Of a stretch of DNA of 64,000 nucleotides, positions 16,400 to 57,276 are shown one piece after another. The notes beneath the pieces are model-generated. The model ran no database searches. It was not told the origin of the DNA and saw only the letters and a program-made list of their open reading frames with translations. The number at the start of each line of letters is the position of its first letter. Position 1 is the stretch's first letter. This stretch comes from Candidatus Heimdallarchaeum aukensis (GTDB lineage Archaea > Asgardarchaeota > Heimdallarchaeia > Heimdallarchaeales > Heimdallarchaeaceae): contig CP084166.1 of assembly GCA_021513695.1 (NCBI GenBank), positions 512,001 to 576,000 on the forward strand. Reading direction: 5' to 3'. Both the position numbers and the translations under genes were made by a program.

Positions 16400-17512
16400 A
16401 TGGTATCGAGTGAGTTAGAATTATACATAAAAATAGCGCAAATAACTCTTATAACATTTATTCTTGCATACTTTATCTACAGAAGAATAAAAGATAAGAT
16501 TACTGGATTTAACTGGTTTATTTTCTTATTCATTTCAGCCTTAACTCAAGGTATTGTTGAAATGATTTTATATGGATTAACATCAAATGGTTCTATTTCA
16601 GAAAATTCTACTCTACAAGAAGTACATATCATTCCTTATGCAGTTGGGTTATTCACCTTATTCTTATATTGCGAACTAATAATGAGAGAAAGACCAAATG
16701 AGATATTATTGAGCTTTATGACTTTACTGATTGGAGCTTATTTAGCAACTTTTTCTCTAGAACTAGCTTTTAACTTAAATACAGATATCCTTCCTAAATA
16801 TCGTTTAAATAGATTAATTTTCAACATTTTCCAATTTTTTGTTCTATTGGAAGCAACACTAATGTTTGCACTGGATGCGAAGAGAGTTGAATATAAGAAA
16901 CTTAGAAGAATTTCTCTTGTTATAGCAATTGCAATAGGTACATCTGCAGTTTTTGCTTTCTTCAAAATATTGGAATACTGGGTTCTTCCTTTTTCCTTTT
17001 ATGGAGCGATACCTTATGGAATTTTATTTGGAGTTTTAGCAATTGAATTTATTGCCAATCCATTCTTTGTTTATTTGCTACCGTCAAGAATAAACAAAGT
17101 TGTAGTCATAGACGATTCTGGAGTTTTACTATTTGCTGTTAGAGTTGGAAAAGAAGAACCTGACATAATCGAAGACACATTACTTTCTGGAACACTTTCT
17201 GCTATGAAATCAGTAATAAAAGAAACAACAGGAACACAAACAGAACTTCAAAAAATAGAGTTCAGAGATAAATATATGATAGTTGCAGAGAATGAAGAAA
17301 AAACAATTTCTACGATTATTATATGCGACAGAGATTCATTTATGCTACAAACAGCAGCAAGACAATTTATCAACGCCTTTGCTAAAGAGTTTAAAGAACA
17401 TTTAGAAAAGTTTGATGGATCAATTGGTAGGTTTGGTGCTGCTACACATCTAGTGCGACGTATCTTTCCTTTTGTTCCACCTAAGGAAATAGTAGAAGTA
17501 AAAGAAAAGTAA
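16400..17512 (+). CDS. 7-TM membrane protein with C-terminal Roadblock/LC7(MglB)/longin-like domain, paralog 1
   Basis: Seven hydrophobic helices by eye. The soluble tail is KVVVIDDSGVLLFAV...DTLLSGTLSAMKSVIKETTG...LQKIEFRDKYMIVAE...ISTIIICDRD...MLQTAARQFINAFAKEF...IFPFVPP. It shares architecture and size with 19373-20479, 25404-26516 and 52633-53757. Confidence 0.6.
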   Translation: MVSSELELYIKIAQITLITFILAYFIYRRIKDKITGFNWFIFLFISALTQGIVEMILYGLTSNGSISENSTLQEVHIIPYAVGLFTLFLYCELIMRERPNEILLSFMTLLIGAYLATFSLELAFNLNTDILPKYRLNRLIFNIFQFFVLLEATLMFALDAKRVEYKKLRRISLVIAIAIGTSAVFAFFKILEYWVLPFSFYGAIPYGILFGVLAIEFIANPFFVYLLPSRINKVVVIDDSGVLLFAVRVGKEEPDIIEDTLLSGTLSAMKSVIKETTGTQTELQKIEFRDKYMIVAENEEKTISTIIICDRDSFMLQTAARQFINAFAKEFKEHLEKFDGSIGRFGAATHLVRRIFPFVPPKEIVEVKEK

Positions 17513-17651
17513 TAAGTTAGGGTTCAATTCTCTTTTTTTTAGTTTCTCTTTTATTTGAATATTAATCAAAAAGTTGGAAGAAAAAAATAAATAGTTGTTT
17601 AAGAAGCTAGAGAATTAGCAAAACTTAATCATTAAAAAATTGTAGATAAAA

Positions 17652-18545
17652 ATGGAGATTGAAGAAAAAGATAAAGTAAAACATGCTAATAAGGATAAAG
17701 AGAATACGATATACGGAGATTTTAGATCTTTAGGTTTCCTATTTCTTTTTACAGTCTTAACGGCAACAATTCTTTCTCTCGTTGATTTTTCTGTCTTAAG
17801 TAATGCAAAATGGCTTTTATCCTTATTGTTTGTTGCAGATCTAATTTTGTTAATATTTATACTACTTGTTCATAGGAATTTTATAACTATAACAGGTTTC
17901 ATAATTACAGAACAATTAAAAGAGATGTTTATTCCAAAGAAAAGAAACAAAGAAAGATTTCTAAAAAAGATTAACAAGTGGAACAGAAAACAAAAATCAT
18001 ATATAAAAGATGCAAAAGAACTTAAAGAATTGATTCCAAAGCTTATTGGATTAACTCTAATTTATTATTTGCTTATTTTCACTATCTTGTTTGATCCCTC
18101 AGCACTAACAGGTTATGGAGCATATTTCACTGTTATGTATTGGGCTTTTATTCTCTTATATGCCTTTGTTTTTCTCTTCATTATGAGATTATTTAATAAA
18201 CATCCCTTAATTTCTGGAGGAATATTTTGGGGTCTAAATGGACTATCTGTTTTTGGTTTAAAAGTACTTAATCCTATTCCTTTGTCTTTATTACTTTATA
18301 TAGCTGGTAAGAAATCATCTGAAATGAATGATGCAATCATTAGCATTATGCAAAAAACATTAATTGCTAAATTTATTTTTGCAGTTTTAAATGTTGTTAG
18401 TGTAATTGGTATAATTGTTTATTCTTTTAGAAACGCAATGAACTTTAACTTTAGTCCAGACTTAATTGTTTTTAAAGAACAATCTGCAGAAGACAACAAG
18501 AAAGAATTTCGTGGAACTGATAACCAAATTAACAAAGAAGAATAG
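17652..18545 (+). CDS. polytopic membrane protein, function unknown
   Basis: 297 aa with multiple long hydrophobic segments and a Lys-rich loop (KKRNKERFLKKINKWNRKQK). Confidence 0.55.
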   Translation: MEIEEKDKVKHANKDKENTIYGDFRSLGFLFLFTVLTATILSLVDFSVLSNAKWLLSLLFVADLILLIFILLVHRNFITITGFIITEQLKEMFIPKKRNKERFLKKINKWNRKQKSYIKDAKELKELIPKLIGLTLIYYLLIFTILFDPSALTGYGAYFTVMYWAFILLYAFVFLFIMRLFNKHPLISGGIFWGLNGLSVFGLKVLNPIPLSLLLYIAGKKSSEMNDAIISIMQKTLIAKFIFAVLNVVSVIGIIVYSFRNAMNFNFSPDLIVFKEQSAEDNKKEFRGTDNQINKEE

Positions 18546-18557
18546 ATATTCGCTAGA

Positions 18558-19320
18558 GGTAGTGTCTAGTTTTCTTCCGACAAAAATATTTGTGGGGACT
18601 CTAATAGTAAGATATGAAAACACAAAAACTATCTACTCTTTTTAAGAGATGCAGAGTCCCCAAAAAGATAATAATAAAAGCGATTTATGAATATATTGGT
18701 TCAAAGAATGGTTTGAGGACAGTAGCATGGAAGAATGGTTTAACGCATCAAACATTATGGTATTGGGTAAAGAAGTTCAGGCTCTTTAGGGAAAGTTTAC
18801 ATAGAGTTGTAGCAGAAAGAGGGGGAATACCAGAGATTATAGTAGTTGATGAAACAGAGATTAAGACCTCTCAAGGCTCAATATATCTGTGGTTCGCGTT
18901 AGATCCTTACAACAAGACTTTACTGGGTTTTAGTATTACTAAAGGACGGAGTAATCTTGAATGTTTACTAACTTTCCGTTATTGGTTCAAATGTTGGGGT
19001 TTTAAGCCCCGTATTGTCGTTACAGATGCAGGGGTATGGTATCCTGTCTTACTTCGTCTCGGTATCAAAATCTCTGTTATCAAAGGTGGTTTACGCTCCT
19101 ATATTGAACGTTTTAATGCCACCCTTAAGAGTTATCATTGGTTTCATTCTATTCTTCACTGTACTTGTCCTATCCGTGCCGTCTATGGCTCTACTCATCT
19201 TTCTGGTTTCCTTACTCTCTTTATGCTCCATTTTAATTTCGTTCGTCCTCATCAGAGCTTGGGACATCCTCCCCTTAGTTCTTTTTTACCTAGGAGGTGG
19301 TATAAAAACTAGACACTACC
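18558..19320 (+). mobile_element. IS6-family-like insertion sequence, intact copy
   Basis: 763 bp. Terminal inverted repeats are GGTAGTGTCTAGTTTT (18558-) and AAAACTAGACACTACC (-19320). Direct repeat of flanking DNA ATTCGCTAGA at 18548-18557 and 19321-19330. Single transposase ORF. Confidence 0.85.
18614..19312 (+). CDS. IS6-type DDE transposase
   Basis: 232 aa with an N-terminal HTH-like region. D-D-E candidates: VVDETEIK, IVVTDAGVWY, SYIERFNATLK. Confidence 0.85.
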   Translation: MKTQKLSTLFKRCRVPKKIIIKAIYEYIGSKNGLRTVAWKNGLTHQTLWYWVKKFRLFRESLHRVVAERGGIPEIIVVDETEIKTSQGSIYLWFALDPYNKTLLGFSITKGRSNLECLLTFRYWFKCWGFKPRIVVTDAGVWYPVLLRLGIKISVIKGGLRSYIERFNATLKSYHWFHSILHCTCPIRAVYGSTHLSGFLTLFMLHFNFVRPHQSLGHPPLSSFLPRRWYKN

Positions 19321-19372
19321 ATTCGCTAGAACTATCAAAGTTTTTAAATAAGTACTTCTTCCTTTTTCTAAT

Positions 19373-20479
19373 ATGGATTTAAATTTTGTAGTTTCACTTA
19401 CTATCGCAATTTTCATGTTTATTTTAGGAATTATTTTCATAGTTCAATCAATAATTAAGAAAAGAACAGCGTACGTTTTTACTTCTTCAATGTTTATAGG
19501 GATGATTGCTTCTCTTATAGAAGTCTTTAGAGTAAGTAAATTACCTAATTTGGATTTTAATTCAAGCGTTTTACTTGTAATTCATTTATCATTTTGGTGC
19601 TTGATGTATCTACTTTCTTTGATTTTCTTCATTCAGCTTGAAAAAGAAAAAATCTTATCCTATATACTTCCAGTCGTCATGATTATTTATGTTCTACACA
19701 TAACTTTCGGGATTTTTTGGATTTACTCTGGTTCTTTTCCTGATCAAGCTCAGTCAACAATAACTATGTTATGGGACTTAACTTACGCTCTCATGGGAAT
19801 ACTCACTTTCTCTTACGGTGCTTATGTCCATTTTAAAACTGGAATAAAAGCACATGAAAAAGAAGGTTATTTGTTAGGAGGAGCACTCATTTTAATAAGT
19901 ATTGGCTTCCTTTTGGGTTTCATTAAAGATTTAGGTGTAAAAGTTGATATTCAAAGTATTCCTGTTGGAGAAGTACTTAAATTAATAGGTATTTTCACCT
20001 TTATTATATTCTACATTGCAAAACCAGATTACATCTTCAGATTACCTTTCCAAATTACTTCAGTTCTTGTATTTAACAGACTTGGAATGTTAATCTATTC
20101 AGCACAATATTTGACTGAAGATGGTGATGAGGAAATAGATCCTGATGATACATCGATGGAGCTAATTACTGCAGCAGTAAATGCATTTTCAACCTTTATG
20201 AAAGAAACAACTGGAAGCGAAGAACCTCTAAAAAGAGTAAAAACAGGAGATAAACTTCTGATAGTAGAACAAGGAGATAAATGTTCTATAGCAATAATCT
20301 CTACCTCTTCTAGTTATTTCATGATACAAAGCATGAGGAAAGTAATTAAGGAACTAGAAAAGAGATATGAAAAAGAACTAGAACTTGATTATACTGACTC
20401 TACCTTTTTCAATGAAGTACCGAAACTTATTTCCTACTCTTTTCCATTCTTGGGAATACCAAAAAAAGAATTGTATTAA
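19373..20479 (+). CDS. 7-TM membrane protein with C-terminal Roadblock/longin-like domain, paralog 2
   Basis: Seven hydrophobic helices by eye. Tail: SVLVFNRLGMLIYSAQ...MELITAAVNAFSTFMKETTG...LKRVKTGDKLLIVEQGDKCSIAIISTSSS..MIQSMRKVIKELEKRYE...SFPFLGIP. Confidence 0.6.
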   Translation: MDLNFVVSLTIAIFMFILGIIFIVQSIIKKRTAYVFTSSMFIGMIASLIEVFRVSKLPNLDFNSSVLLVIHLSFWCLMYLLSLIFFIQLEKEKILSYILPVVMIIYVLHITFGIFWIYSGSFPDQAQSTITMLWDLTYALMGILTFSYGAYVHFKTGIKAHEKEGYLLGGALILISIGFLLGFIKDLGVKVDIQSIPVGEVLKLIGIFTFIIFYIAKPDYIFRLPFQITSVLVFNRLGMLIYSAQYLTEDGDEEIDPDDTSMELITAAVNAFSTFMKETTGSEEPLKRVKTGDKLLIVEQGDKCSIAIISTSSSYFMIQSMRKVIKELEKRYEKELELDYTDSTFFNEVPKLISYSFPFLGIPKKELY

Positions 20480-20495
20480 AAAAAATCTTTTTTTT

Positions 20496-21617
20496 CTATT
20501 CTTCTTCTTTTTCAAAAGGAAAGACATAATTTAGTTTAAGATCATCGCGTAAAAAGATTAGGTCTCGAGCAATACTATCATTAATTGGTACACCATGCTC
20601 TCTTACTCTCTTTTCTGCTTCGTATTCTTTTTCTCCAGCAGTATAAATTCTTGATTCACCAGGAGCTTTTTTAGAGTTCCTGAGCTCTCTACATATCGAA
20701 CCAGAAATCTTTTTGAAAATATTTACATCAATAAAATGTTCTACGTTTATCGCAATAAAGAAATGACCAATCATAAAGTGCCTAAAAGAACCATCTTCGT
20801 TCAACCCACTTAAATCCTTTAGGAATTTTCCGTTCTGTAAAGCTGAAGATAATATCTCTACAACAGTAGAATAACCATACCCTTTATGTCCAGATAATTC
20901 TTCTCCCTTTCCTCCAAGAGGTAAAAGTGCAGCCTTTCCATTCACAAAATCAGAGATGAGCTGCTCAGCATCAGTTCTATACTCTCCAGTTTCAGTGTCT
21001 ATTACACAACCTAAAGGAAGATCTTTATTTTCCCGAGCATAAACTTCAACTTTTCCTCTTTGAATAATAGATGTAGCACAATCCAAAACAAAAGGAAAAG
21101 CTTCATCAGTAGGTATACCAAAAGTCAAAGGATTAGTGCCTAACATAGGCTCAACACCAAAAGTAGGTGCAACAGCAGGACGAGCATTTGTACCAGTAAT
21201 CCCTATACAGTTCTCTTTTACAGCCATAAGAGCATAATAACCAGCAATACCATAATGAGTACCATTACGAACAACAACCATACCTATACCAAACTTCTTA
21301 GCCTTAGAAATAGCAAGCTCCATAGCTTTATAGGAAATATAATGACCATTACCATGATGGGCATCAATAACAGCAATAGCATCTTTATCTTTAACAATTT
21401 CATATTTGCTAATAAGATGTTGCTTTCTCTTAATACGGTCATAATAATATTTTAATCGCTGAACACCATGACTTGTTATCCCGCGAAGATCTGACTCAAT
21501 TAAAACATCAGCACTAACTTGAGCTTCCTCAACAGGATAACCCAAAGAAACAAAAACATCTCGAATAAAATCATGCAATAAATCAACTGAAACATATTTC
21601 TGATTGGAATCTGTCAT
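20496..21617 (-). CDS. Ldh_2-family (malate/L-lactate/sulfolactate-type) 2-hydroxyacid dehydrogenase
   Basis: N-terminus VSADVLIESDLRGITSHGVQRLKYYYDRIK and HYGIAGYY; about 370 aa, typical of the family. Confidence 0.8.
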   Translation of the reverse strand: MTDSNQKYVSVDLLHDFIRDVFVSLGYPVEEAQVSADVLIESDLRGITSHGVQRLKYYYDRIKRKQHLISKYEIVKDKDAIAVIDAHHGNGHYISYKAMELAISKAKKFGIGMVVVRNGTHYGIAGYYALMAVKENCIGITGTNARPAVAPTFGVEPMLGTNPLTFGIPTDEAFPFVLDCATSIIQRGKVEVYARENKDLPLGCVIDTETGEYRTDAEQLISDFVNGKAALLPLGGKGEELSGHKGYGYSTVVEILSSALQNGKFLKDLSGLNEDGSFRHFMIGHFFIAINVEHFIDVNIFKKISGSICRELRNSKKAPGESRIYTAGEKEYEAEKRVREHGVPINDSIARDLIFLRDDLKLNYVFPFEKEEE

Positions 21618-21959
21618 CTCATTCTTAACTTAAAATTAGTCAATATAAATATTGTTTAAAATAGAAAAAAAATAAAAGAAATTCAAAAAATAAATTTCCA
21701 AAAAAAATTATCTGTATTATCTTTACATTGCTAAATTAAATATAAAATATCCATACAAATAGTTTTTTAGATACTACAACAGAATATCGCATTTATTATC
21801 ATTTATAAAGAAGTAGCATTTTTAAAGAAATTTTTTTTTTGTTTTTTTTTGAAGCATACTGTTTTGCAAAAAAATGTAGAAAATGATAAATAAATCTTTG
21901 AAACAACTAAATAAAAAACTTGAAACATAACAATTAACATTTACTTTTTTGAGAAAAAG

Positions 21960-22523
21960 TTATGATTTTTTCATTTCAAGCTGATTTACCAACCATGTAA
22001 ATGCTTCGTTTACTCCTGTTCCGTTTATTGCACTGCAGTCAAACACTGCAAAAGTTCTATCTTTCATTTCTAAATGTAGTCCTAGCAATTGTATTAGCAT
22101 TGGTGCTTGTATTGATTCTGGTAGATCTTGTTTATTTGCTATTATCAGGCAAGGTATTTTTTCTAAATACGGATTGTTAAATACATGAACTTTTAATATA
22201 TCTCTCGCTTCTGGCAATCTTTCTATATCTGCTGCATCTATTACAAATATTACTGCTGAACTTCCTGGGTAATGCACTTCCCATAGAAATCTGAACTGTT
22301 TTTGTCCTGCTACATCTACTATAGTAATATTCCAATCTGCAAAGTTTACTGTATCTATGTTTTGTCCTATTGTTGGTACTGTATCTTGAAAGTCTCCTGT
22401 GTTTACATATTTCATTAATGTAGTCTTACCTGCTGAATCTAAGCCTAAAACGATAATTTTAGCCTTTTTTTCTGATTTAAGTTTTTTCCTTAACCAAGAA
22501 GAAAACGATAGTTTAGAGCTCAT
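21960..22523 (-). CDS. Arf/Arl-like small GTPase
   Basis: KIIVLGLDSAGKTTL (P-loop in the Arf form GLDxAGKTT), VPTIGQNIDTV, DVAGQ, LWEVHY, ANKQDLP, SAINGTGVNEAFTWLVNQL. N-terminal basic amphipathic segment MSSKLSFSSWLRKKLKSEKK without Gly2. Confidence 0.9.
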   Translation of the reverse strand: MSSKLSFSSWLRKKLKSEKKAKIIVLGLDSAGKTTLMKYVNTGDFQDTVPTIGQNIDTVNFADWNITIVDVAGQKQFRFLWEVHYPGSSAVIFVIDAADIERLPEARDILKVHVFNNPYLEKIPCLIIANKQDLPESIQAPMLIQLLGLHLEMKDRTFAVFDCSAINGTGVNEAFTWLVNQLEMKKS

Positions 22524-22615
22524 TGTGTATTATTTCTTTATTCTAATTACCCATTAATAAAAATTGTCTAAGTCTTCAACAATAAAAAAAGAAAGTGATA
22601 AATCTTAAAAAAAAA

Positions 22616-24808
22616 TTATTGGTGTTTCTTTGCTAATTCTATTAGTTCAGGAAAGTCCATTCCTAGTTCTTTTAATTTTTCTATAGTAGGTACACCGTTT
22701 TCTGTCCATCCTCTTCTTTCATATACAGCTTTTTTCAACTTTTCATACCTTTCTTCTCTGTATTTTCTTATTGCGGCCATCTTTTCTTCTACTGTCATGT
22801 TTGTTGGATCTACACCTACTTTTTCTTTTAGTTCTTTAAGGTAGTATTTGTCTTCTCTGGACAGGTATTCTTCTTTTGTTACTGGACCCATAGCTCTAAA
22901 GGGTATAGTGTCTAATTCTTTGTAAGTTACACCTTCTGGAATGAAAAGTAAATTCATTACTCTTTGGAAGTTATAGACTCTTTCACTCATTTTAATATAT
23001 TCTCTAGAATCTATATTATTACCTGTTACACTATTGAAGTATTGGACATAATTTAGAACGTGTTCTGGCACTTTTGCAGGGTCGGCTAGATCTTCAGGAA
23101 CAGTCATTCCATGCTTTTCTATCTTTCCTTCTGCAAATTCTTTATTATCTTCTGGAACAATATCGTTCCAAGGTAACTTACATAGACCTAATAGTCCAAA
23201 GGAAGTTCTCCACATTGGGAACCACCATAGAGCTTCTGCTTTTTGTTCGAAAGTGGGCATAAAGTTATGCACCATGTCTAGAAAGATTAACCATGCTTCA
23301 TCGTGCTGTGGTCCCTTGAGTGTAAGACCATATCCTCCTTGTTGTGCAAGTGACTCTTTTGTCATATATTCGCTAAATTCTAGACCTTTAGATTCCATTC
23401 CTATATCGTCCAAAAGTTTGGCTTCTTCCTCACTCAAGTTAAACTCTTTCTTGAAGTACTCTTTCATGTATCTAATTCCTTTACCGAATATTTTACCGAA
23501 CCCATCTCCTTTTGCTACTTGGTGAATAACTTCCATTGCTCCTTCAAAATTGCCCCAAGAGAGATCTATTCCTCCAGTTCTTTCTTTGTTTAATATTCCG
23601 TATTCGTAGCACTCCATACAGAAGGCCATACCTGTTCCTACACTAATAGTATCTAAACCATAGTTATCACAATAGAAATTAACTTCAATAACATGGTCTG
23701 GGTCCCACATGTACCAGTTAGAACCTACTCCAGCAGCTGTTTCATATTCTGGACCGTCGACAGTTACTTTTTGACCTTTGTATGGTCCAGTTTTACATTC
23801 AAAACTACTCACACCATGAGTACATCCTACTGTACATCCTTTCCAACATGGGTCTGGTCCTTTTTCAAATCTCTTATAATAAGCTTCTTTACCTATTTTT
23901 TCTGCTTGTGGGTCAGAACCAAATTTGAAGTTCTTTGTTGGTAAAAGGTCAAAATCATTCATTATTGGAATCAAATGTATAGTTCCAATATTTCTCATAT
24001 CGTTTTGCTTTGGATCGAGTTCAGTTATTTCTTTACTGTGTCTCTTGGCTACTTCTTTCTCTGCTTCAGGATTAGCAGGATTGTTAGATTTGACGTTAAC
24101 ATTGCTTTTTCTTACAACTAGAGCTTTTATTTTCTTATTTCTAAATACAGTTCCTGTTCCTCCTCTTCCGGCTTGTTTATATCTTACATATCCTCTTTTA
24201 CCGTCAAACCAACTGAAATTTAAGCAACCCATATAAGCATTTTCTGCTCCAGGACCTGCAGATACAACAGAAATATTTCTTTTATCTTTTTCATCTACTG
24301 CATATCTCTCAGTAAGTATTTTTCCTATCTGAAAAGTTTCTGAAGGTAAATCTTCTGCTTCTTCGATGATTATTTTTCCATTATCTCCATCAATAAAAAT
24401 GACTAATTCTTTTTCTGCTTTACCTTGAATGGCCATAGCATCGAAACCTGCAAATTTGAGAAAAGGACCAAAATATCCTCCAACGTTTGAATCAACCAAA
24501 ATACCAGTTAATGGAGAAATGGCTGTTACAATACTTTTACCTGAACCAGGATAGTTGGTTGTTCCACCTAATGGTCCAGAAGCTATACAAAGAACATTAT
24601 CTGGGTCATCCCATTTTACTTTTTTGTCTTTAGGAATATATTTCCAAGTTAGCCAAAGATCAAATCCCCTTCCACCTATGAATTTTTCTTTCATTTCTTC
24701 TGTAACATCTTCTATTTTTGCTTCTAACGTTTCTAAATTAATGTACAATGTTTTGTTAGCATATCCTTTATCTATTACTGGAACTTCATAATTTATCTCT
24801 TTAATCAT
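22616..24808 (-). CDS. aor: tungsten-type aldehyde:ferredoxin oxidoreductase family protein
   Basis: GGRGFDLWL, GPEYETAAGVGSNW, GLDTISVGTGMAFCMECYE, and Cys ligand region CWKGCTVGCTH. At 730 aa it has a C-terminal extension relative to the roughly 600-aa members I recall. Confidence 0.9.
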   Translation of the reverse strand: MIKEINYEVPVIDKGYANKTLYINLETLEAKIEDVTEEMKEKFIGGRGFDLWLTWKYIPKDKKVKWDDPDNVLCIASGPLGGTTNYPGSGKSIVTAISPLTGILVDSNVGGYFGPFLKFAGFDAMAIQGKAEKELVIFIDGDNGKIIIEEAEDLPSETFQIGKILTERYAVDEKDKRNISVVSAGPGAENAYMGCLNFSWFDGKRGYVRYKQAGRGGTGTVFRNKKIKALVVRKSNVNVKSNNPANPEAEKEVAKRHSKEITELDPKQNDMRNIGTIHLIPIMNDFDLLPTKNFKFGSDPQAEKIGKEAYYKRFEKGPDPCWKGCTVGCTHGVSSFECKTGPYKGQKVTVDGPEYETAAGVGSNWYMWDPDHVIEVNFYCDNYGLDTISVGTGMAFCMECYEYGILNKERTGGIDLSWGNFEGAMEVIHQVAKGDGFGKIFGKGIRYMKEYFKKEFNLSEEEAKLLDDIGMESKGLEFSEYMTKESLAQQGGYGLTLKGPQHDEAWLIFLDMVHNFMPTFEQKAEALWWFPMWRTSFGLLGLCKLPWNDIVPEDNKEFAEGKIEKHGMTVPEDLADPAKVPEHVLNYVQYFNSVTGNNIDSREYIKMSERVYNFQRVMNLLFIPEGVTYKELDTIPFRAMGPVTKEEYLSREDKYYLKELKEKVGVDPTNMTVEEKMAAIRKYREERYEKLKKAVYERRGWTENGVPTIEKLKELGMDFPELIELAKKHQ

Positions 24809-24928
24809 ATTAATACACCCGAGAATATCGTTATAAATACGAAAAAAATCAACTATATAATTTTAACTCTATCTCGTCAAGTATTAAAGAAAACTAACTT
24901 TTTCTTTTAACTAAAAAGAAAGTTAACT

Positions 24929-25348
24929 TTACGAAGAATTATCAATCTTAAATTTATTAGCATTTTTGGGTTCGTGTCCAGCTTCAAAAGATTGTATCTC
25001 AAGAGTATATCTGTCAGGATCATTAAAGAAGATGTTATAAATTTGATATTTTTCGTACATACTAGGCTCTTTAGTTAGATTGACACCTTTCTCTTTAAGG
25101 TATTTCGCCCAAAGATTCACTTCATCTGGTGTTTCAACAACTAATGTTAAACATGTTTTCTCAGGATTTGAAATTTCTTCACTTGTTTCACAGAATCCCC
25201 AGTAACCATTTGAACCTATGTTATAAATTATACAGTTTGTCTGCTCTAAGGCAACTTCAAGTTCTAATAGACCAGAATAGAACTTTTTATTTTCTTCTAA
25301 ATTTTTTGTTTTCAAAAAGGTAATAGGATAAATAATTTTTGGAAGCAT
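24929..25348 (-). CDS. glyoxalase/VOC-superfamily protein
   Basis: 139 aa; TFLKTKNLEENKKFYSGLLELEV ... FNDPDRYTLEIQ fits the paired beta-alpha-beta-beta-beta pattern. Confidence 0.55.
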   Translation of the reverse strand: MLPKIIYPITFLKTKNLEENKKFYSGLLELEVALEQTNCIIYNIGSNGYWGFCETSEEISNPEKTCLTLVVETPDEVNLWAKYLKEKGVNLTKEPSMYEKYQIYNIFFNDPDRYTLEIQSFEAGHEPKNANKFKIDNSS

Positions 25349-25403
25349 ATATTAAATAAGTTATTCTTCTTTTAAAAATTTCTTGAGAATGTATGGATTT
25401 TTT

Positions 25404-26516
25404 TCAAACTCCAACTGTTAGTTTTGATTCATCTACAAATGGGAAGTACAATGGAATGTATTTCACTGCATCATCGAAAACAGAGGCATCTCCGCTAAAA
25501 CATACAATCTGCTCTCTAAACATTGAATTAAACTTGTTTACAAAATGTTCAAGTGAAGTGTCAAATATCCTTACCCTTCTATCAACTATTAACACTCCGA
25601 TAATATCATCTTTCTCTTTGGTTATCATGACTCTATCTTTTAGTTCAACACATTTTAATAACTGATAGGATGAATTGGTTACTTCAGAAATAAAATGAGC
25701 AAAAGCGTTAATCATTCCCCCAATTAACAAACCCTCTGATTCTTTTTTAGAATAGTTTGAAGCAGAGAAAAGAGTTGTTCCATTTTTATTAATTATTAAG
25801 AAGTTAAAAATCTCTGCAGAAGTGAATAAGACAAATTTAGGGTCAATTAAATAAATGACCAAAGTTACACCGAGAGCTAACCCAAAACCTATAGCACCAT
25901 ATGTTTCTAAAGGAACTACATGTTCCAAAAATTCCAAAATAGCCACTATAAAAGCTATAAAGAAGCTTATCCATAATAGTAATGTATGATATTGAGCTTT
26001 TTTACCTACACTCTTAACAAAGGTAAAAGTTATTCCTACTAAACATACTGTAACAACATATAGTTGAAAAAAATCTAAAAACCAAATATATAAACAGTCA
26101 TTCTTTGTTGGAACCTTCAAATTCGTAGAGATCGGGGGTAAATCAAAGAAAATATTTATCAAATAAGTAACAAATAAAGAAAAAATAATAATGTAACCTG
26201 CTTGAACTACTCTACGATCCCAAGCGTTGAAGTTACTAAAATGTATTAAAATATATAGAAATACAAGAGCATAAGGAATAATCTCTAAAGAAGGTAAATA
26301 ACTATTTTCTAAATATGCCCACTGATAACCTGCTACACGGGCAAAATAGAAAAAGAATTCTACTACACTTTGTATAATCGCCAGAATTAATGCAGCAATT
26401 AAATTTTTATAACCTTGAACTTTGTTTACTGTGCTCCGATAAGAAAAAACACCTAACATAATCAAAATAATAACAACTTGAAATAGTTTGAATATCGCTT
26501 GGCTTAGAGTTTCCAA
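25404..26516 (-). CDS. 7-TM membrane protein with C-terminal Roadblock/longin-like domain, paralog 3
   Basis: Seven hydrophobic helices by eye. Tail: FNFLIINKNGTTLFSAS...GLLIGGMINAFAHFISEVTN..LLKCVELKDRVMITKEKDDIIGVLIVDRR..FDTSLEHFVNKFNSMF...YFPFVDE. Confidence 0.6.
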   Translation of the reverse strand: METLSQAIFKLFQVVIILIMLGVFSYRSTVNKVQGYKNLIAALILAIIQSVVEFFFYFARVAGYQWAYLENSYLPSLEIIPYALVFLYILIHFSNFNAWDRRVVQAGYIIIFSLFVTYLINIFFDLPPISTNLKVPTKNDCLYIWFLDFFQLYVVTVCLVGITFTFVKSVGKKAQYHTLLLWISFFIAFIVAILEFLEHVVPLETYGAIGFGLALGVTLVIYLIDPKFVLFTSAEIFNFLIINKNGTTLFSASNYSKKESEGLLIGGMINAFAHFISEVTNSSYQLLKCVELKDRVMITKEKDDIIGVLIVDRRVRIFDTSLEHFVNKFNSMFREQIVCFSGDASVFDDAVKYIPLYFPFVDESKLTVGV

Positions 26517-26647
26517 AGTAAATCAATTAATTGATTATATTTCTATTATATTAAATTTATGTAAAAATGCCAAAGTTACATTTTAGAAAAGATATTGAAA
26601 AAATATACTAAAACTTCTTGAATTACATATTTTTCTTTAATGAGATA

Positions 26648-26935
26648 TCATCCCCCTGCAACAAAAGGAAGTATCGATATTTCAGTTTTATCTTCAGTTA
26701 CTAGATAAGTTGACAGCTCTTCATGATGAATAGTTTTGCTATTTATCATTATATTATAAAAAGAATGTAGCTTTTTATTTGTAAATAGGAGTCCATCAAG
26801 CTCTGGATACGTCTTAGTTAAAAATTCTATTGCTTCTAAAACAGTTATTTCCTTATCTTCTAATTCAATTTCGACTTCTGCTTTATTTCCTAAAGTAGAC
26901 CTTAACTGACCAAACAAGCGAAAAATAACTCTCAT
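26648..26935 (-). CDS. MoaD/ThiS-type beta-grasp (ubiquitin-like) protein ending in Gly-Gly
   Basis: 95 aa. MoaD-like start MRVIFRLFGQLRSTLG and C-terminus ...ILPFVAGG directly followed by the stop. Confidence 0.7.
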   Translation of the reverse strand: MRVIFRLFGQLRSTLGNKAEVEIELEDKEITVLEAIEFLTKTYPELDGLLFTNKKLHSFYNIMINSKTIHHEELSTYLVTEDKTEISILPFVAGG

Positions 26936-27000
26936 TCTTTTTCCTCTGATAAGATAAAGTAGATTAAAAGAATAAAATTGTTATGTTTTGTCAATTCTTT

Positions 27001-27561
27001 TTATATAGAATTTACCTCAAAGAATTTGACTATATTTTCTATAAGAGTAATAAAAGCTCTTTCTACATTTTCTCCTGTTTTAGCTGAAGTTTCTATATAA
27101 GGTACTTCGAATCCACTCCAATTACTTAGGCTTTTGGCATAATCTGCAGCATATTCATATGGTACTGCATTAGGAGTTGAATCACGAAGATCAGATTTGT
27201 TTCCAATTAAAAGCATAGGAACAATCTTATTTTTGTTATTCTTGATTAACTCATGAATCCAATTAGGTAATAATTCATATGTTTCAGGTCTTGAAATGTC
27301 AAAAACTAGCAAAGCACCTGAAGTTCCTCGATAATATACTTCTCTCACTGCAGAAAAACGTTGTTGTCCTGCTAAATCCCATATCTGTAGAGTATACTCA
27401 ATATTATTTAGTAGCATTTTCTTTACTGCAAAGTCTGCACCTACTGTCATGGCATATCCTGATTCAAAAGTTTCTCCTAAATATCGACGTCTTAACGATG
27501 TTTTACCTACTGCTCCTTCACCAAGCAATGAAACTTTAAAGATTCTCTGCACTTTTTTCAT
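27001..27561 (-). CDS. Rab/Ras-like small GTPase
   Basis: LLGEGAVGKTSL (P-loop), WDLAGQQRF, YYRGTSGALLVFDIS, GNKSDL, ETSAKTGENVERAF. No C-terminal Cys (ends FFEVNSI). Confidence 0.9.
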   Translation of the reverse strand: MKKVQRIFKVSLLGEGAVGKTSLRRRYLGETFESGYAMTVGADFAVKKMLLNNIEYTLQIWDLAGQQRFSAVREVYYRGTSGALLVFDISRPETYELLPNWIHELIKNNKNKIVPMLLIGNKSDLRDSTPNAVPYEYAADYAKSLSNWSGFEVPYIETSAKTGENVERAFITLIENIVKFFEVNSI

Positions 27562-27717: not shown

Positions 27718-29088
27718 ATGAGTGAAGAAACAGTTGTTATTCAAAATCCTTTACTAGTGTGTAAGTACATTAAAAAATTTACTCATTATCCAGAATTTGA
27801 TAGAATTTTAATAGATAATTTAGATTGGAAAAGAGAAGATATTATTGGAATCTCCATTATTCCTATTGTAGATACTGTTCCATCAGGCAAAAATGCAATC
27901 TTTAGAATATTTATTTCAAACATGGGAGAAACAACACAAAAGGTAAAAGTTCATGTTCGTACTTTTGGTTATTTAAGCAAAAAAGAAAAGTTAAATAGAA
28001 GCCAAATAGCATTTAAAAAATTAATTATCAACAACAATGAAGTATGGTATAGAGATGTTATCATACCAAGTGATATAAAATTAGGTAAAAACTTTTTCCA
28101 GCTTGTCGTTAAATATAAAGTAAACAAAAAGAAAAGAATAATCTATGAAATTAAAGAATATACAGAGATTATGCCTTTAGATCATATAAAACAGATTGCC
28201 AGACAAAACTTTTTAGGACTTGCCCAAAAGCCCTACATTGATCCTTCTTCAATAAGTTATTGGATATATTGCTCTCTTTTTGGTTCTAGAAATTATTCAA
28301 AAGAACCAACTTTCATTTATATAACTAAATGGATTGTTTTTCTTCTAAGTATTTCTACTATTGGTGCTTACTTCACTTTACCTTTACCTGAAATAGTTCT
28401 TTATATCAGTTCAGGAGGAGCTTTGCTTTCTTTCCTAACCTTTTTTACTGATTTAGATAGACATACAGTCCGTGAGATACATGATTTAGGTTTAACTGAA
28501 TTAAAAAGAAAAGCCTTCATAGATAACATCCCGAAAAAAACCGAATGGCTTAAGTTATTCACTCTGAAAAGTGATTATTTCTATTTCATTGAAGAAGAAT
28601 CAACTTTTGCATGGAAAACTAGTACAGATAATTCATTTAAACCAGTTATTTATTCTTTAAATCAAGTTTTAGATACACAATTAAGTATAAAAGAAGGAAC
28701 AAAAGAAGAGGAAGAAAGAATAATTGAAGAAATAATAACTAATAGGAAAATAGAAAAAATTAAAACAAAAACAAAAACGAAAGAAGAAGTAGAAGAACAC
28801 GAAGGTATTGTTTTTGAAGAAGATTTGTCCATAAGTTTTGATGCAAAGATGCAAATACTTGATAGTATAACTTCATATACTGTACCTAGCAAAGCAATTG
28901 AATTAGAAGATAGTTTTGAACTTCCTGTAGAAATAATAAAAACAGAAACATTCATAGAACCTGATTCTGTAGCTTTTGATGTTTTAGATAAACCTTTTAC
29001 AACTGATTTAGAACCAATAATTACAGACAGTGAAAGTATAGACTCTAAAGGTTCACTGAAATTCAAGAAAACAAACATAGATGTATAA
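27718..29088 (+). CDS. membrane protein with N-terminal beta-rich domain and acidic C-terminal tail, function unknown
   Basis: 456 aa, divergent from the Rab-like gene. Two adjacent hydrophobic helices (WIVFLLSISTIGAYFTLPLPEIVLYISSGGALLSFLTFF). Glu/Lys-rich tail. Confidence 0.5.
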   Translation: MSEETVVIQNPLLVCKYIKKFTHYPEFDRILIDNLDWKREDIIGISIIPIVDTVPSGKNAIFRIFISNMGETTQKVKVHVRTFGYLSKKEKLNRSQIAFKKLIINNNEVWYRDVIIPSDIKLGKNFFQLVVKYKVNKKKRIIYEIKEYTEIMPLDHIKQIARQNFLGLAQKPYIDPSSISYWIYCSLFGSRNYSKEPTFIYITKWIVFLLSISTIGAYFTLPLPEIVLYISSGGALLSFLTFFTDLDRHTVREIHDLGLTELKRKAFIDNIPKKTEWLKLFTLKSDYFYFIEEESTFAWKTSTDNSFKPVIYSLNQVLDTQLSIKEGTKEEEERIIEEIITNRKIEKIKTKTKTKEEVEEHEGIVFEEDLSISFDAKMQILDSITSYTVPSKAIELEDSFELPVEIIKTETFIEPDSVAFDVLDKPFTTDLEPIITDSESIDSKGSLKFKKTNIDV

Positions 29089-48875: not shown

Positions 48876-49651
48876 GGTAGTGTCTAGTTTTCTTCCGACA
48901 AAAATATTTGTGGGGACTCTAATAGTACGATATGAACATTCAAAAACTATCTACTCTTTTTAAGAGATGCAGAGTCCCCAAAAAGATAATAATAAAAGCT
49001 ATTTATGAATATATTGGTTCAAAGAATGGTTTGAGGACATAGCATTGAAGAATGGTTTAACACACCAAACATTATGGTATTGGGTAAAGAAGTTCAGGCT
49101 CTTTAGGGAAAGTTTACATAGAATTGTAGCAGAGAGAGGGGAATACCTGAGATTATAGTAGTAGATGAAACAGAGATTAAGACCTCTCAAGGCTCAATGT
49201 ATCTGTGGTTCGCATTAGATCCTTCCTTACAACAAGACTTTACTGGGTTTTAGTATTACTAAGGGACGGAGTAATCTTGAATGTTTACTAACTTTCCGTT
49301 ATTGGTTCTGGTTCAAATGTTGGTATGGGGTTTTAAGCCTCGTATTGTCGTTACAGATGCAGGGGTATGGTATCCTGTCTTACTTCGTCTCGGTATCAAA
49401 ATCTCCGTTATCAAAGGTGGTTTACGCTCCTATATTGAACTTTTTAATGCCACCCTTAAGAGTTATCGTTGGTTTCATTCTATTCTCCACTGCACTTGTC
49501 CTATCCGTGCTGTCTATGGCTCTACTCATCTTTCTGGTTTCCTTACTCTCTTTATGTTCTATTATAATTTTATTCGTCCTCATCAGAGTTTAGGACATCC
49601 TCCCCTTAGTTCCTTTTTACCTAGGAGGCGGTATAAAAACTAGACACTACC
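48876..49651 (+). mobile_element. IS6-family-like insertion sequence, decayed copy
   Basis: Same termini as 18558-19320 (GGTAGTGTCTAGTTTT ... AAAACTAGACACTACC). Flanking direct repeat TTAAAAATC (48867-48875 and 49652-49660). The transposase frame is broken by stops and indels; only a 120-aa C-terminal ORF (49281-49643) survives. Confidence 0.8.
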
Positions 49652-50694: not shown

Positions 50695-51700
50695 AAGCAT
50701 GTCCAAAAATTCTTTTTCACCAACTATACAGTCCGAAGGAGTAAAAGGTAGTTGTAACAGAGGAGAGAACTATAAAGAGTAGAAAGAATGGTGGAGGGTA
50801 AGTGATCAAGGATTGGGGGAAGAGAGAGTTTGAGGAGACCAAAGACGTGTTCAATACTACTACGATACTCGGGGTGATGATTATGGCGATAGAGACCAGG
50901 GTAGAGACGATGAGCTTGAACTATTGATCCGAGAGGAGGAGAGGGATAACGAGCATTACTTTTTGGGGGAATAACAGGGAAAAAGGAATGTTGTCTAAGA
51001 AGACCGACGATATTTTCTGTCCAGTTGGCACAGTCTCCATAAAATCTCAAGAGCGGTCTCAAGAGTGCAGAAGGAAGTTTCTGCCATAGTAAACCGAAGA
51101 CTTTACTATCGTGAGTGTTACTAGCAGAATGAGCTAAAGAGATTATAGCTCTGGAGGGTAAACCAACTATAAGGTGTATCTTCCAGAAAAGTTTAGTTTG
51201 GAGGTTTTCTTTAGTCCTCCTCTTGCCCACTTGAGAAAACGCCAAACAGAAGCTTGACGGATTTTAAACCCTGAACTATCCACCGCCATAGCTTTCAACC
51301 CTTTTTTTTTCACTATTTCCCCACCTAAGTTTATTATCCACCGCTCTAAAATTTTACTTTCTGTCGCTCTCCACACTGCATGAAAAGTAGATTTGGAAGG
51401 AATCTTCTTCATCCACCCCTCTTCTATCAAAAAATCGCATAGAGACAACTTTTCCTCTAACTTCCTCCAAGCAATTCCTTCTATTCTAGCAATGATCGCT
51501 AAAGCCAGTATCACCCACCTTTCTGCTATTCTTTTTCTCCCTCTCTTACTTTCTCTCGGTTCCTCTTTCACCAGTTTCTTAAGGAAAGGTTCATTAATGA
51601 TTATGAATTCTCTTGCTTTGTGGAGGTCTATGATCTGAAAGAAACTCATACTTCCGACATAAACCCCCACATTAATAAAAATTAATTTTTGGACATGCTT
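50695..51700 (-). mobile_element. IS5-family-like insertion sequence, copy 2
   Basis: Perfect 17-bp terminal inverted repeats AAGCATGTCCAAAAATT (50695-50711) and AATTTTTGGACATGCTT (51684-51700). I found no flanking direct repeat. Confidence 0.85.
50724..51670 (-). CDS. IS5-type DDE transposase in two overlapping frames (orfA 51167-51670, orfB 50724-51245; a -1 shift is needed)
   Basis: orfA ends ...AVDSSGFKIRQASVWRFLKWARGGLKKTSKLNFSGRYTL*. orfB carries KIHLIVGLPSRA...NTHDS...YGDCANW...IEHVFGLLK to the natural end. It has fewer lesions than copy 1. Confidence 0.7.
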
Positions 51701-52632: not shown

Positions 52633-53757
52633 CTAAATTATCAATACTCGTTTAAGATTTTGCTCAACTATTTTTTTGAGTAATTTTTCTGAAGTTTCAT
52701 CGAAATTTACAAATCCAGGGTCAATTTTTGAAGCCAGAACAGGATTTTCTTGTAATTCTCTTAAAAGCACATTTAATACAGTCTCTAAAGTTTTATCAAA
52801 TCTTTCTCCAAAAACATATGCTTGGAGAAATCCTGTGGCTGTCGTTCCTATAACTTTGTCTTTGTAAACGACAGTATTGAGTTCAGATTTTCTTTCCATT
52901 ATTTCTTCTAAAGCTTTGGTTACACCAGAGATTAAACCAGAGGTTAAATCTATAGAAACTTCTTTATTAATTTCTTCTTTATCAGAAGTAAAATCATTAT
53001 AATAAACAGGTAATCCACTATCAGTGGTAATCAACAATTGATTTATCTTAGCATTAGATATCATTATATTAAAAGGATCTATTAACAGGGTTATAGACCA
53101 AATAAACCATCCTGCAGCCATTAGAAAAGGTCGTATCGCTCTGAGTATATAACTACTAGAAAAAACTGCAAAAATAACCCAGATAATTATGATGATAAAT
53201 CCAACCACTTGCACAAATAACTGCTTTTTAATGTCTGGATCTTCTGTTCTAAAAAGCTTTGTTGAAATAGGAAGAATAAAAGAAACAATGAAAAAAAGTA
53301 ACATAGGAGCTGTAAGAGCAGGTATCCATATACTATACTTCGCAGTCCAAGCGCCAAGAGTTTCAGAATAACTCAATTCAGTAAAATCAGGTAAAATAAA
53401 AGCTAAAAATAATGCTCCGCCCAAAAAACTAACGATGTTAACAACGGGATGTAGACGATTTGTTTTGAAGTAGATAAAGGAGTAAAAAACGAGAATCATA
53501 CCAAGAATTAATAGACAGTTAAAAAATGACCAAATGGATGAAATTAAGTAAAAGTTATCAAAAATCACCAAGTTTTTAGTAAAAAAGGATGTTATGAACC
53601 GACCTACAGAATCAAATGCCCAAAAAACATAACTCATTCCCAGTAGAAAATGAGAAAGAAAATGTGTTTGTTTGTATGTCTTAAATAAAATAAAACTGCT
53701 TGTAATGAAAGTCAGTTGTTCAAACAAAAATAATCCTATCGAGTAATAAGAAATCAT
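52633..53757 (-). CDS. 7-TM membrane protein with C-terminal Roadblock/longin-like domain, paralog 4
   Basis: Seven hydrophobic helices by eye. Tail: NQLLITTDSGLPVYYNDF...SIDLTSGLISGVTKALEEIM...LNTVVYKDKVIGTTATGFLQAYVFGERF..TLETVLNVLLRELQ. Confidence 0.55.
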   Translation of the reverse strand: MISYYSIGLFLFEQLTFITSSFILFKTYKQTHFLSHFLLGMSYVFWAFDSVGRFITSFFTKNLVIFDNFYLISSIWSFFNCLLILGMILVFYSFIYFKTNRLHPVVNIVSFLGGALFLAFILPDFTELSYSETLGAWTAKYSIWIPALTAPMLLFFIVSFILPISTKLFRTEDPDIKKQLFVQVVGFIIIIIWVIFAVFSSSYILRAIRPFLMAAGWFIWSITLLIDPFNIMISNAKINQLLITTDSGLPVYYNDFTSDKEEINKEVSIDLTSGLISGVTKALEEIMERKSELNTVVYKDKVIGTTATGFLQAYVFGERFDKTLETVLNVLLRELQENPVLASKIDPGFVNFDETSEKLLKKIVEQNLKRVLII

Positions 53758-56562: not shown

Positions 56563-57276
56563 ATGTTTCATGACTTTCAAGTTCAAGATGGTATTAACCT
56601 TTACAATTCCAATGGTTTTATTATAAAAAATAATACCATTTCCTATGGCGGGTATGGACTATTTGTATCTGAATCTTCACACGGGGTATATACTAATAAT
56701 ACTTGTATAGAAAATAGCAAATATGGTGTTTATATAAAATATGGATACAACATTTCTATCAATGAAAACAACTGCAGCGCTAATGATCAAGGTATAAATC
56801 TTTACAACTCTTCTACAATTTATATCCACAATAATAGCATAAGTAAAAACACTATTGGACTGACTTTTGATCTCTCTAATCATTCAATCATCACTTTTAA
56901 TTCATTTGAGAAGAATGAACAATATGCAATAATTATGGATTCTTCATCTTCTTCTAATCTCATCCATCATAATACGTTTATTGACAACAACTTGCAAGGA
57001 ACATCTCAAGCTTGTGATAATGGTCATAATAATACTTGGTATGACCAATCAACAAAAACTGGTAATTATTGGTCTGATAGAAAAGGGATAGGAAAATATT
57101 ACATAGATGGTAATAGTAAATCGTATGATAAATACCCCCTAAAAAATCTCCCTCAACAATGTGCTGAAAAAACTTCTATTGATTTTCTCATCATTCTGAT
57201 CTCTTTTCTCTCTACAGTTATTTTGTCTTATGTCATAAGAAACAAGTATGCATTCAGACAATTACGATTTAGATAG
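56563..57276 (+). CDS. beta-helix (PbH1) protein fragment with C-terminal TM, N-terminally truncated relative of the giant family
   Basis: PbH1 units (NNTISYGGYGLFVSESSHGVYTNNTCIEN...), NNLQGTSQACDNGHNNTWYDQSTKTGNYWSD..GKYYIDG as in A and C, and TM FLIILISFLSTVILSYVI. No signal peptide; the frame opens only at 56551. Confidence 0.5.
   Translation: MFHDFQVQDGINLYNSNGFIIKNNTISYGGYGLFVSESSHGVYTNNTCIENSKYGVYIKYGYNISINENNCSANDQGINLYNSSTIYIHNNSISKNTIGLTFDLSNHSIITFNSFEKNEQYAIIMDSSSSSNLIHHNTFIDNNLQGTSQACDNGHNNTWYDQSTKTGNYWSDRKGIGKYYIDGNSKSYDKYPLKNLPQQCAEKTSIDFLIILISFLSTVILSYVIRNKYAFRQLRFR

Follow-up and report, generated by a model that had tools for sequence, protein, structure and literature searches.

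Seven-transmembrane proteins fused to a longin domain in Asgard archaea: a candidate receptor family for small-GTPase control

The present study concerns four genes within a 64,000-nucleotide stretch of the Candidatus Heimdallarchaeum aukensis genome (contig CP084166.1, positions 512,001 to 576,000; hereafter the window, with a G+C content of 30.8%). Each of them encodes a protein in which a bundle of seven transmembrane (7TM) helices is, as we hold with high confidence, fused to a cytoplasmic longin domain. The architecture is real and probably undescribed. As to its function, we infer, with a probability of about 0.45, that these proteins, members of a large Asgard family, serve as membrane receptors or as receptor-like platforms and would provide the whole chain from sensing to a small GTPase. 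The four proteins, named A to D, and the parts of A are as follows.

16400-17512, plus strand: paralog A, 370 amino acids, 7TM bundle and longin domain
16412-17071: 7TM domain of A, residues 5-224
17090-17464: longin domain of A, residues 231-355
17465-17473: conserved Phe-Pro-Phe (FPF) tail of A, residues 356-358
19373-20479, plus strand: paralog B, 368 amino acids, 7TM bundle and longin domain as in A
25404-26516, minus strand: paralog C, 370 amino acids, TTG start, 7TM bundle and longin domain
52633-53757, minus strand: paralog D, 374 amino acids, 7TM bundle and longin core, the most divergent copy, without the FPF tail

Architecture, topology and fold

An initial annotation, made from the sequence alone, had described four open reading frames of one architecture and size, and all four were recovered exactly where it had placed them. 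Their kinship was established with an independent hidden Markov model, which was built from 92 distant family members and zero window sequences and has a profile length of 367. Over nearly their full length it matched A (E = 2e-83), B (7e-81; profile positions 4-365), C (2e-68) and D (4e-46), and no other open reading frame of the window was matched. The alignment of D stops at profile position 332 of 367, and D therefore lacks the tail that bears Phe-Pro-Phe. This accords with the aromatic-Pro-Phe ending noted earlier in three of the four proteins, which is present in A, B and C and missing from D; family-wide, F356 is kept in 89%, P357 in 80% and F358 in 62% of the sequences.

The duplications that produced these paralogs are old. 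B, C and D share 25, 29 and 20% identity with A, respectively, and identity across paralogs amounts to only 20-31%, whereas orthologues at syntenic positions in other Heimdallarchaeia reach 47-94% for the A type, 45-90% for the B type and 34-88% for the C type (the last in loci L001, L004, L010, L013 and L024). Because the orthologues are syntenic while cross-paralog identity stays so low, the view of an old, maintained family, already taken in the initial annotation, is borne out. At 82-89% nucleotide identity, the window is collinear with the complete Ca. Heimdallarchaeum endolithica PR6 genome (CP084167.1). There, the NCBI annotation gives the C orthologue as a protein of 351 amino acids that starts at an internal Met and has lost most of the first helix, while C read from its TTG start has a complete first helix, and its alignment to the family profile begins at position 1; in H. 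endolithica the orthologue is probably annotated too short.

Two AlphaFold models of A were compared, the first from 38 sequences (pLDDT 79.7) and the second from 101 diverse family sequences (pLDDT 93.4, pTM 0.90). Both share one topology, namely seven transmembrane (TM) helices (residues 5-32, 37-62, 77-95, 101-124, 136-162, 166-192 and 203-224), in line with the roughly seven hydrophobic helices counted before, and then a ββ-α-βββ-α-α domain. A linker of only five residues, containing P228 (kept in 86% of the sequences), separates TM7 from the latter. The soluble domain of A consists of strands 231-238, 243-249, 285-287, 292-297 and 303-309 and helices 259-277, 314-336 and 343-355. Its presence had been foreseen, at a size of about 120 amino acids that has to be raised to about 135 (231-366); the pattern proposed for it, strand-strand-helix-strand-strand-helix, was roughly right, although the model is slightly richer (β-β-α-β-β-β-α-α).

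As for orientation, the 113 family members examined carry on average 7.2 Lys and Arg residues on the longin side of the membrane and 2.7 on the opposite side, the inner loops being short and basic and the outer loops longer and acidic. By the positive-inside rule, an N-out/C-in topology with a cytoplasmic longin domain is therefore predicted, as the earlier designation of the domain as cytoplasmic had it, and not an extracellular C-terminus. The N-terminus ahead of TM1 is only about 4-5 residues long, and there is no extracellular domain.

The soluble domain had been called Roadblock/longin-like. The superfamily stands, while the Roadblock half of the name does not. Foldseek, the check proposed for this domain at the outset, supported the Roadblock/longin fold and ranked TRAPPC1 first (TMt 0.60), then AP-2 σ2, Bet5 and TRAPPC4, with MglB, LAMTOR and Mon1-Ccz1 placed after these TRAPP and AP-2 longins; superposition on solved longin structures likewise identified the domain as a longin. 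At the sequence level, the family profile matched TRAPPC1 (E = 0.0098), Bet5 and Trs23 among PDB sequences. These TRAPP alignments begin at residue one of the respective longin domains, and that of TRAPPC1 starts at the N-terminal β1-β2 'LxxxxxxG' and α1 'LxxGxxxA' motifs. The Pfam longin models all remained below their gathering thresholds: Intu_longin_1 scored 16.1 against 23.7 bits on C (E = 0.013), Fuz_longin_1 was sub-threshold in 6 of 115 members (best E = 1.4e-4) and Sybindin in 2 of 115, and C9orf72-like was also weakly matched.

The distinction between longin and Roadblock topologies follows Tran et al. (PMC10933270). The order of secondary-structure elements fits a longin, in that no soluble helix precedes β1 (only TM7 does) and two helices follow β5, unlike Roadblock domains, which have an N-terminal helix and one C-terminal helix. 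Together with the ranking of the structural matches, this helix topology led us to assign the domain to the longins, of the TRAPP type. An assignment to Roadblock/LC7 (PF03259) was rejected, the Robl_LC7 model reaching 13.4 bits against a cut-off of 23.

Comparison with the known members of this superfamily is instructive. TRAPP subunits (Bet5/TRAPPC1 and Trs23/TRAPPC4, the Pfam Sybindin family) have the same β-β-α-β-β-β-α-α fold and give the best sequence-profile matches, but they are small soluble proteins assembled with Bet3-type subunits, whereas the Asgard longin is the C-terminal part of a polytopic membrane protein and carries the conserved FPF tail. A guanine nucleotide exchange factor (GEF) activity of the TRAPP type would be a candidate for the 7TM-longin proteins by analogy. 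The Roadblock/LC7 platforms (MglB, LAMTOR2-5/Ragulator and Asgard Roadblock proteins) belong to the same superfamily, with Foldseek TMt values of 0.5-0.6, and act as membrane-proximal platforms for small GTPases. Ragulator is anchored to the membrane through LAMTOR1; in the 7TM-longin proteins, by contrast, the anchor is covalent and made of seven helices.

The membrane domain is likewise not without parallels. By structural comparison the 7TM bundle is similar in fold to G-protein-coupled receptors (GPCRs), at 5-13% identity, and the top 60 structural matches contained no microbial rhodopsins, PAQR proteins or transporters. In the 115 members none of the GPCR families of Pfam (7tm_1/2/3, TAS2R, STE2 and similar) was matched, and the sole GPCR match among PDB sequences was BILF1 (E = 0.0097, with high compositional bias). 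Because of this low identity and the missing Pfam matches, we call the bundle GPCR-like in fold and claim no homology. Eukaryotic GPCRs (class T TAS2R, class D Ste2, class C) likewise have seven helices in N-out/C-in orientation, and they share with the 7TM-longin proteins acidic and aromatic residues conserved at the cytoplasmic ends of TM3 and TM7, together with a variable outer and a constant inner face. The F/Y90-x-E92 and N-P-x-Y-x-Y motifs of the family resemble DRY and NPxxY but are out of register, so that the 7TM-longin proteins differ from eukaryotic GPCRs in having no in-register DRY, NPxxY or CWxP. They also differ in their output, a covalently joined domain in place of a heterotrimeric G protein; the likeness is one of fold and not established homology. 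No Gα protein was evident in the window, where an Arf-like protein gives only a weak, partial G-alpha match (36.7 bits; cut-off 48.8).

Conceptually, the nearest precedent comes from bacteria: DgcT and CdgI of E. coli combine a GPCR-like 7TM domain with GGDEF (PMC10760455). These two and the 7TMR-DISM family follow the same logic as the 7TM-longin proteins, i.e., a cytoplasmic signalling module fused to the 7TM part and no heterotrimeric G protein. The outputs of 7TMR-DISM receptors are, however, a cyclase, kinase or phosphatase instead of a longin domain, and these receptors carry an extracellular DISMED-type domain that the 7TM-longin proteins lack. They are furthermore bacterial, whereas all named 7TM-longin members are Asgard. 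Sequence kinship with them is unproven, 7TMR-DISM_7TM having matched weakly in 2 of 115 members (best E = 1.1e-3) and HisKA_7TM, also weakly, in one. A parallel that we take to be conceptual only is LYCHOS (GPR155), a lysosomal GPCR-like protein that signals to Rag GTPases via GATOR1. Here too a 7TM sensor stands over a small-GTPase system of longin and Roadblock domains, but LYCHOS has a transporter-like part and a DEP domain and acts non-covalently on GATOR1, and we saw no sign of common descent with the 7TM-longin family.

Size, conservation and novelty of the family

An exhaustive profile search over 1.84 billion representatives, clustered at 50% identity, returned 2,211 clusters at E <= 1e-3, 702 at E <= 1e-10 and 27 at E <= 1e-30. 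Among the top 150 clusters, most proteins have 350-390 amino acids and match end to end. All source-named members sampled are Asgard (Heimdallarchaeaceae, Kariarchaeaceae, Hodarchaeota, Helarchaeota, Sigynarchaeota and Promethearchaeota), and the family is apparently restricted to this group. The members are all annotated as 'hypothetical protein'. Pfam and NCBIfam gave only sub-threshold matches and no family assignment, which agrees with the initial impression that this is not a recognised named family.

Conservation increases from the outside towards the output domain: extracellular loops average 0.85 bits, outer halves of the TM helices 1.26, inner halves 1.45, longin β1-β2 1.71, longin α1 1.88 and the linker 1.99. 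Within the TM part and the linker, the strongest positions are F/Y90-x-E92 at the cytoplasmic end of TM3 and Y217, P221, Y225 and P228 in TM7 and the linker; within the longin domain they are G241 (98%), L261, G264 and A268, in β1-β2 and α1, in addition to the FPF tail. A variable outside combined with a constant inner face and output domain would be the pattern of a ligand-diversified receptor family.

The same longin module is found in other settings as well. It stands behind an MG2 domain and a TM helix in a membrane protein, in three copies in a CARDB/TPR protein of 2,171 amino acids, in tandem membrane proteins of 798 amino acids from Promethearchaeota (L033 5465-10397) and at the C-terminus of TPR-repeat proteins (L036 1407-3347 and 3672-5852). 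Judged from these sequences, it appears to behave as a mobile output or adaptor module.

In the full-text literature on Asgard and archaeal longin, Roadblock, 7TM and GPCR proteins, we found no description of a 7TM-longin fusion, and the Asgard 7TM proteins discussed in the literature searched are rhodopsins only. A July 2026 review of GPCR origins treats type-I rhodopsins as the only prokaryotic candidates (PMC13466386). Liu et al. catalogued 130 Roadblock/longin Asgard clusters of orthologous genes (asCOGs) and reported Asgard fusions of NPRL2-like longin domains with two-component modules (10.1101/2020.10.19.343400); the 7TM-longin proteins may already stand under an asCOG number. The new element is the longin domain as the fused output of a prokaryotic 7TM receptor, in the Asgard lineage.

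A proposed route from sensing to small GTPases, and competing readings

In the scheme that we propose, the outer, variable half of the 7TM bundle would bind a ligand or detect a membrane or environmental cue, and the longin domain would receive the signal through the cytoplasmic ends of TM3 (F/Y-x-E) and TM7 (Y-x3-P-x3-Y-x2-P), both conserved, and through the linker, which is short and rigid. Like other longin and Roadblock domains, this domain would act as a platform, probably as a dimer of identical or of different subunits. A and B are an ancestral tandem pair and would be a candidate heterodimer; tandem pairs of family members recur in loci L016, L024 and L033. By analogy, a small Ras-superfamily GTPase would dock on the longin domain at the membrane, to be either recruited or altered in its nucleotide state. 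In TRAPP, Mon1-Ccz1, Ragulator and MglB, dimers of longin and Roadblock domains serve as GTPase platforms (PMC10933270). The presence of four copies within 64 kb was counted as support for an expansion of the family. Candidate partners in the Heimdallarchaeum genome would be two neighbouring Arf-like and Rab-like proteins, which are encoded, with a third gene, as follows.

21960-22523, minus strand: Arf-family small GTPase, 187 amino acids, Pfam Arf E = 1.3e-47, one gene from B
26648-26935, minus strand: ThiS/MoaD-like protein, 95 amino acids, Pfam ThiS E = 3.9e-10, between the Rab-like GTPase and C
27001-27561, minus strand: Ras/Rab-family small GTPase, 186 amino acids, Pfam Ras E = 2.3e-46, upstream of ThiS and C

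The sequence of the Arf-like protein opens with MSSK and thus lacks Gly2, which makes myristoylation in the eukaryotic manner unlikely; the Rab-like protein ends in FFEVNSI, without a C-terminal Cys, and thus has no prenylation signal. With neither of them lipidated as in eukaryotes, each would need a membrane-bound partner in order to act at the membrane, and a membrane-embedded longin partner could give them such a route.

The genes for Rab-like protein, ThiS and C follow each other on the same strand with gaps of 65 and 131 bp, and they belong to a wider block of the Heimdallarchaeaceae, i.e., helix-turn-helix regulator, A, (B), Ldh_2, Arf, aldehyde:ferredoxin oxidoreductase (AFOR), glyoxalase, C, ThiS and Rab, which is conserved down to about 48% identity of A. 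Roughly 30 syntenic loci were collected through alignment of A orthologues and are, accordingly, A-type loci only. Arf-like orthologues occur in 17 of them, and the position of the ThiS-like gene is conserved. The order Rab-ThiS-family member is seen also in L001, L004/L034 and L024, and in L010 and L013 the Rab-ThiS pair adjoins an A-type gene. In the latter two, which are Heimdallarchaeota metagenome-assembled genomes (L010 3564-16764, L013 713-14770), the block from A to C is inverted relative to Rab-ThiS when compared with window positions 16400-27561, with the end points at or near the two oppositely oriented paralogs.

Several observations weigh against a coupling to GTPases, or against sensing as its starting point. 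One A-to-C inversion explains the adjacency of Rab-ThiS to different paralogs, which is therefore not independent evidence of linkage and was discarded as such. The neighbourhoods of nine distant family loci (Kariarchaeaceae, Helarchaeota, Promethearchaeota and others) were inspected over 8-10 kb with precomputed Pfam annotation and a phmmer scan, and in none of the nine was a small GTPase found; nor did a scan of the neighbours of D show any GTPase, longin or Roadblock gene. The gene linkage is thus confined to the Heimdallarchaeaceae lineage, and the idea that it extends to the whole family had to be dropped. The cluster of that lineage also holds metabolic genes (Ldh_2, AFOR, glyoxalase and ThiS/MoaD) and may amount to no more than inherited gene order. 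Direct action on GTPases is not a property of all longin domains, those of SNAREs and of the adaptin σ/μ subunits being exceptions. The TM core has no conserved polar pocket, only E92 and the tyrosines of the cytoplasmic ends reaching 35% or more, which leaves ligand binding putative. The receptor-to-GTPase coupling advanced in the initial annotation is consequently upheld in part: A, B and C do lie in a conserved Heimdallarchaeaceae cluster with Arf-like and Rab-like genes, while the distant loci and D offer no such company. The positive case for it rests mainly on the known behaviour of longin domains.

Might the proteins be sensors whose output is something other than a GTPase? The longin domain would then be a general adaptor for a Roadblock/longin partner, TPR scaffolds, two-component-type regulators or cytoskeletal or ESCRT components. 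We regard this as somewhat unlikely. The nine distant loci without a GTPase neighbour speak for it, as do the Roadblock/LC7 gene found next to one distant member (L035), the same longin module fused to TPR arrays in L036, the SNARE and adaptin longins that work without touching GTPases, with AP-2 σ2 as the second-best Foldseek match, and the Asgard NPRL2-like longin domains on two-component modules. On the other hand, the nearest matches in both sequence and structure are TRAPP subunits of the Rab-GEF core, and A, B and C share their conserved cluster with two small GTPases. Moreover, because in Asgard archaea the genes of GTPases and of the longin and Roadblock proteins that regulate them generally do not form operons (Tran et al., PMC10933270), missing adjacency is a weak negative.

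A different role for the membrane part has to be weighed as well. The 7TM bundle might sense nothing and merely hold the longin platform on the membrane for unlipidated GTPases or other partners, as a constitutive anchor comparable to lipidated LAMTOR1, which anchors Ragulator. The TM core without a conserved polar or charged pocket, the N-terminus of about four residues with no extracellular domain, the linker and longin as the most conserved parts and the missing lipidation signals of both neighbouring GTPases would all suit such an anchor. We nevertheless consider it unlikely, since seven helices in a confidently predicted GPCR-type packing far exceed what anchoring needs, and relatives exist in which a single TM helix carries the longin module; the massive diversification of the outer half over an inner face that stays constant is rather the signature of ligand-diversified receptor families, and TM3 and TM7 are conserved at their cytoplasmic ends. 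That the 7TM part is a transporter, channel or membrane enzyme with the longin domain as a cytoplasmic regulatory appendage seems very unlikely to us. Some 7TM bundles are indeed channels or hydrolases (channelrhodopsins and PAQR, both weak sequence matches here), but the bundle interior has no conserved charged residues and no family matched significantly; a putative transporter family of NCBIfam (E = 0.034) was set aside at 13 bits against a cut-off of 100. Least of all do we expect a photoreceptor similar to microbial (type I) rhodopsins that signals through its longin domain, a reading that the seven-helix N-out/C-in topology and the heimdallarchaeial rhodopsins and schizorhodopsins encoded by Asgard archaea might invite. 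Bac_rhodopsin of Pfam matched in 0 of 115 members, and the highest frequency of Lys in any TM7 column is 0.14; without the conserved retinal-binding lysine in TM7 these are not retinal proteins, and this reading is effectively refuted.

Asgard genomes are rich in small GTPases, longin domains and Roadblock domains. To our knowledge, almost nothing is known of the signals that control Asgard GTPases, or of how GTPases without lipid anchors gain access to membranes. The 7TM-longin family, large, diversifying and apparently restricted to Asgard archaea, is a concrete entry point to this control, and it adds an archaeal candidate other than rhodopsin to the question of where the GPCR fold originated. 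Even if the longin domain does not interact with GTPases, the 7TM-longin proteins make up a major class of Asgard membrane receptors that had not been catalogued before. A bolder form of the proposal would have an archaeal receptor-to-small-GTPase system in which a sensor of GPCR fold exerts direct control over a longin platform of the TRAPP/Ragulator type at the membrane, and it would explain how unlipidated Asgard Arf-like and Rab-like GTPases are addressed to membranes. Such a system would be evolutionarily continuous with its eukaryotic counterparts, being either related to the 7TM fold of eukaryotic GPCRs or a membrane-anchored precursor of GEF complexes built on longins. This we consider improbable.

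The insertion between A and B, and other neighbours

A and B are directly adjacent in Ca. H. endolithica and two other genomes, and B-type orthologues lie immediately downstream of A in loci L001, L004, L016 and L024. In the window, positions 17510-19321 stand in place of 181 bp of the Ca. H. endolithica locus and hold the following features.

17652-18545, plus strand: orphan multi-pass membrane protein between A and B, 297 amino acids, weak DUF2207_C match (E = 0.0014)
18558-19320, plus strand: IS6-like element, 763 bp, with perfect 16-nt terminal inverted repeats (GGTAGTGTCTAGTTTT)
18614-19312, plus strand: DDE transposase of the IS6-like element, 232 amino acids, weak Pfam matches to rve, rve_3 and DDE_Tnp_IS240

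The IS6-like element is flanked by a 10-bp target-site duplication, ATTCGCTAGA, at 18548-18557 and 19321-19330. The mapped ends and the adjacency of A and B in relatives confirm what had been noticed at first, that a membrane protein and a recent IS6-like insertion split the pair. The membrane protein of 297 amino acids lies outside the insertion sequence as bounded by the inverted repeats. Ca. H. endolithica lacks a counterpart, as do all of the roughly 30 syntenic loci, and the gene did not belong to the A-B locus in its ancestral state. A second IS6-like copy, 93.8% identical and 30 kb away (48876-49651), has only a transposase reading frame of 120 amino acids (49281-49643) and may be degraded.

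Among the other neighbours, the metabolic genes between B and the Rab-like gene (20496-25348 and 26648-26935) encode an Ldh_2-family dehydrogenase, a tungsten- or molybdopterin-dependent aldehyde:ferredoxin oxidoreductase, a glyoxalase-like protein and the ThiS/MoaD-like protein, which raises, as a question only, whether the receptors might sense aldehydes or 2-oxo acids. The glyoxalase-like gene is intact in the window (24929-25348); in H. endolithica (L004 17199-18708 / L034 9110-11043) it stands next to C and is interrupted by about 1.5 kb of inserted DNA with an IS605 OrfB/TnpB (Cas12f-like) gene. Divergent from the Rab-like GTPase, a protein of 456 amino acids with predicted TM helices is encoded at 27718-29088. 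Its position is conserved in L001, whose orthologue gives a weak Presenilin match, while the window copy has no Pfam match. Near D, finally, lie a DDE_Tnp_1 transposase fragment (50724-51245), a NosD/β-helix protein (56563-57276) and a caspase-like peptidase (57917-58981; Peptidase_C14, E = 5e-10).

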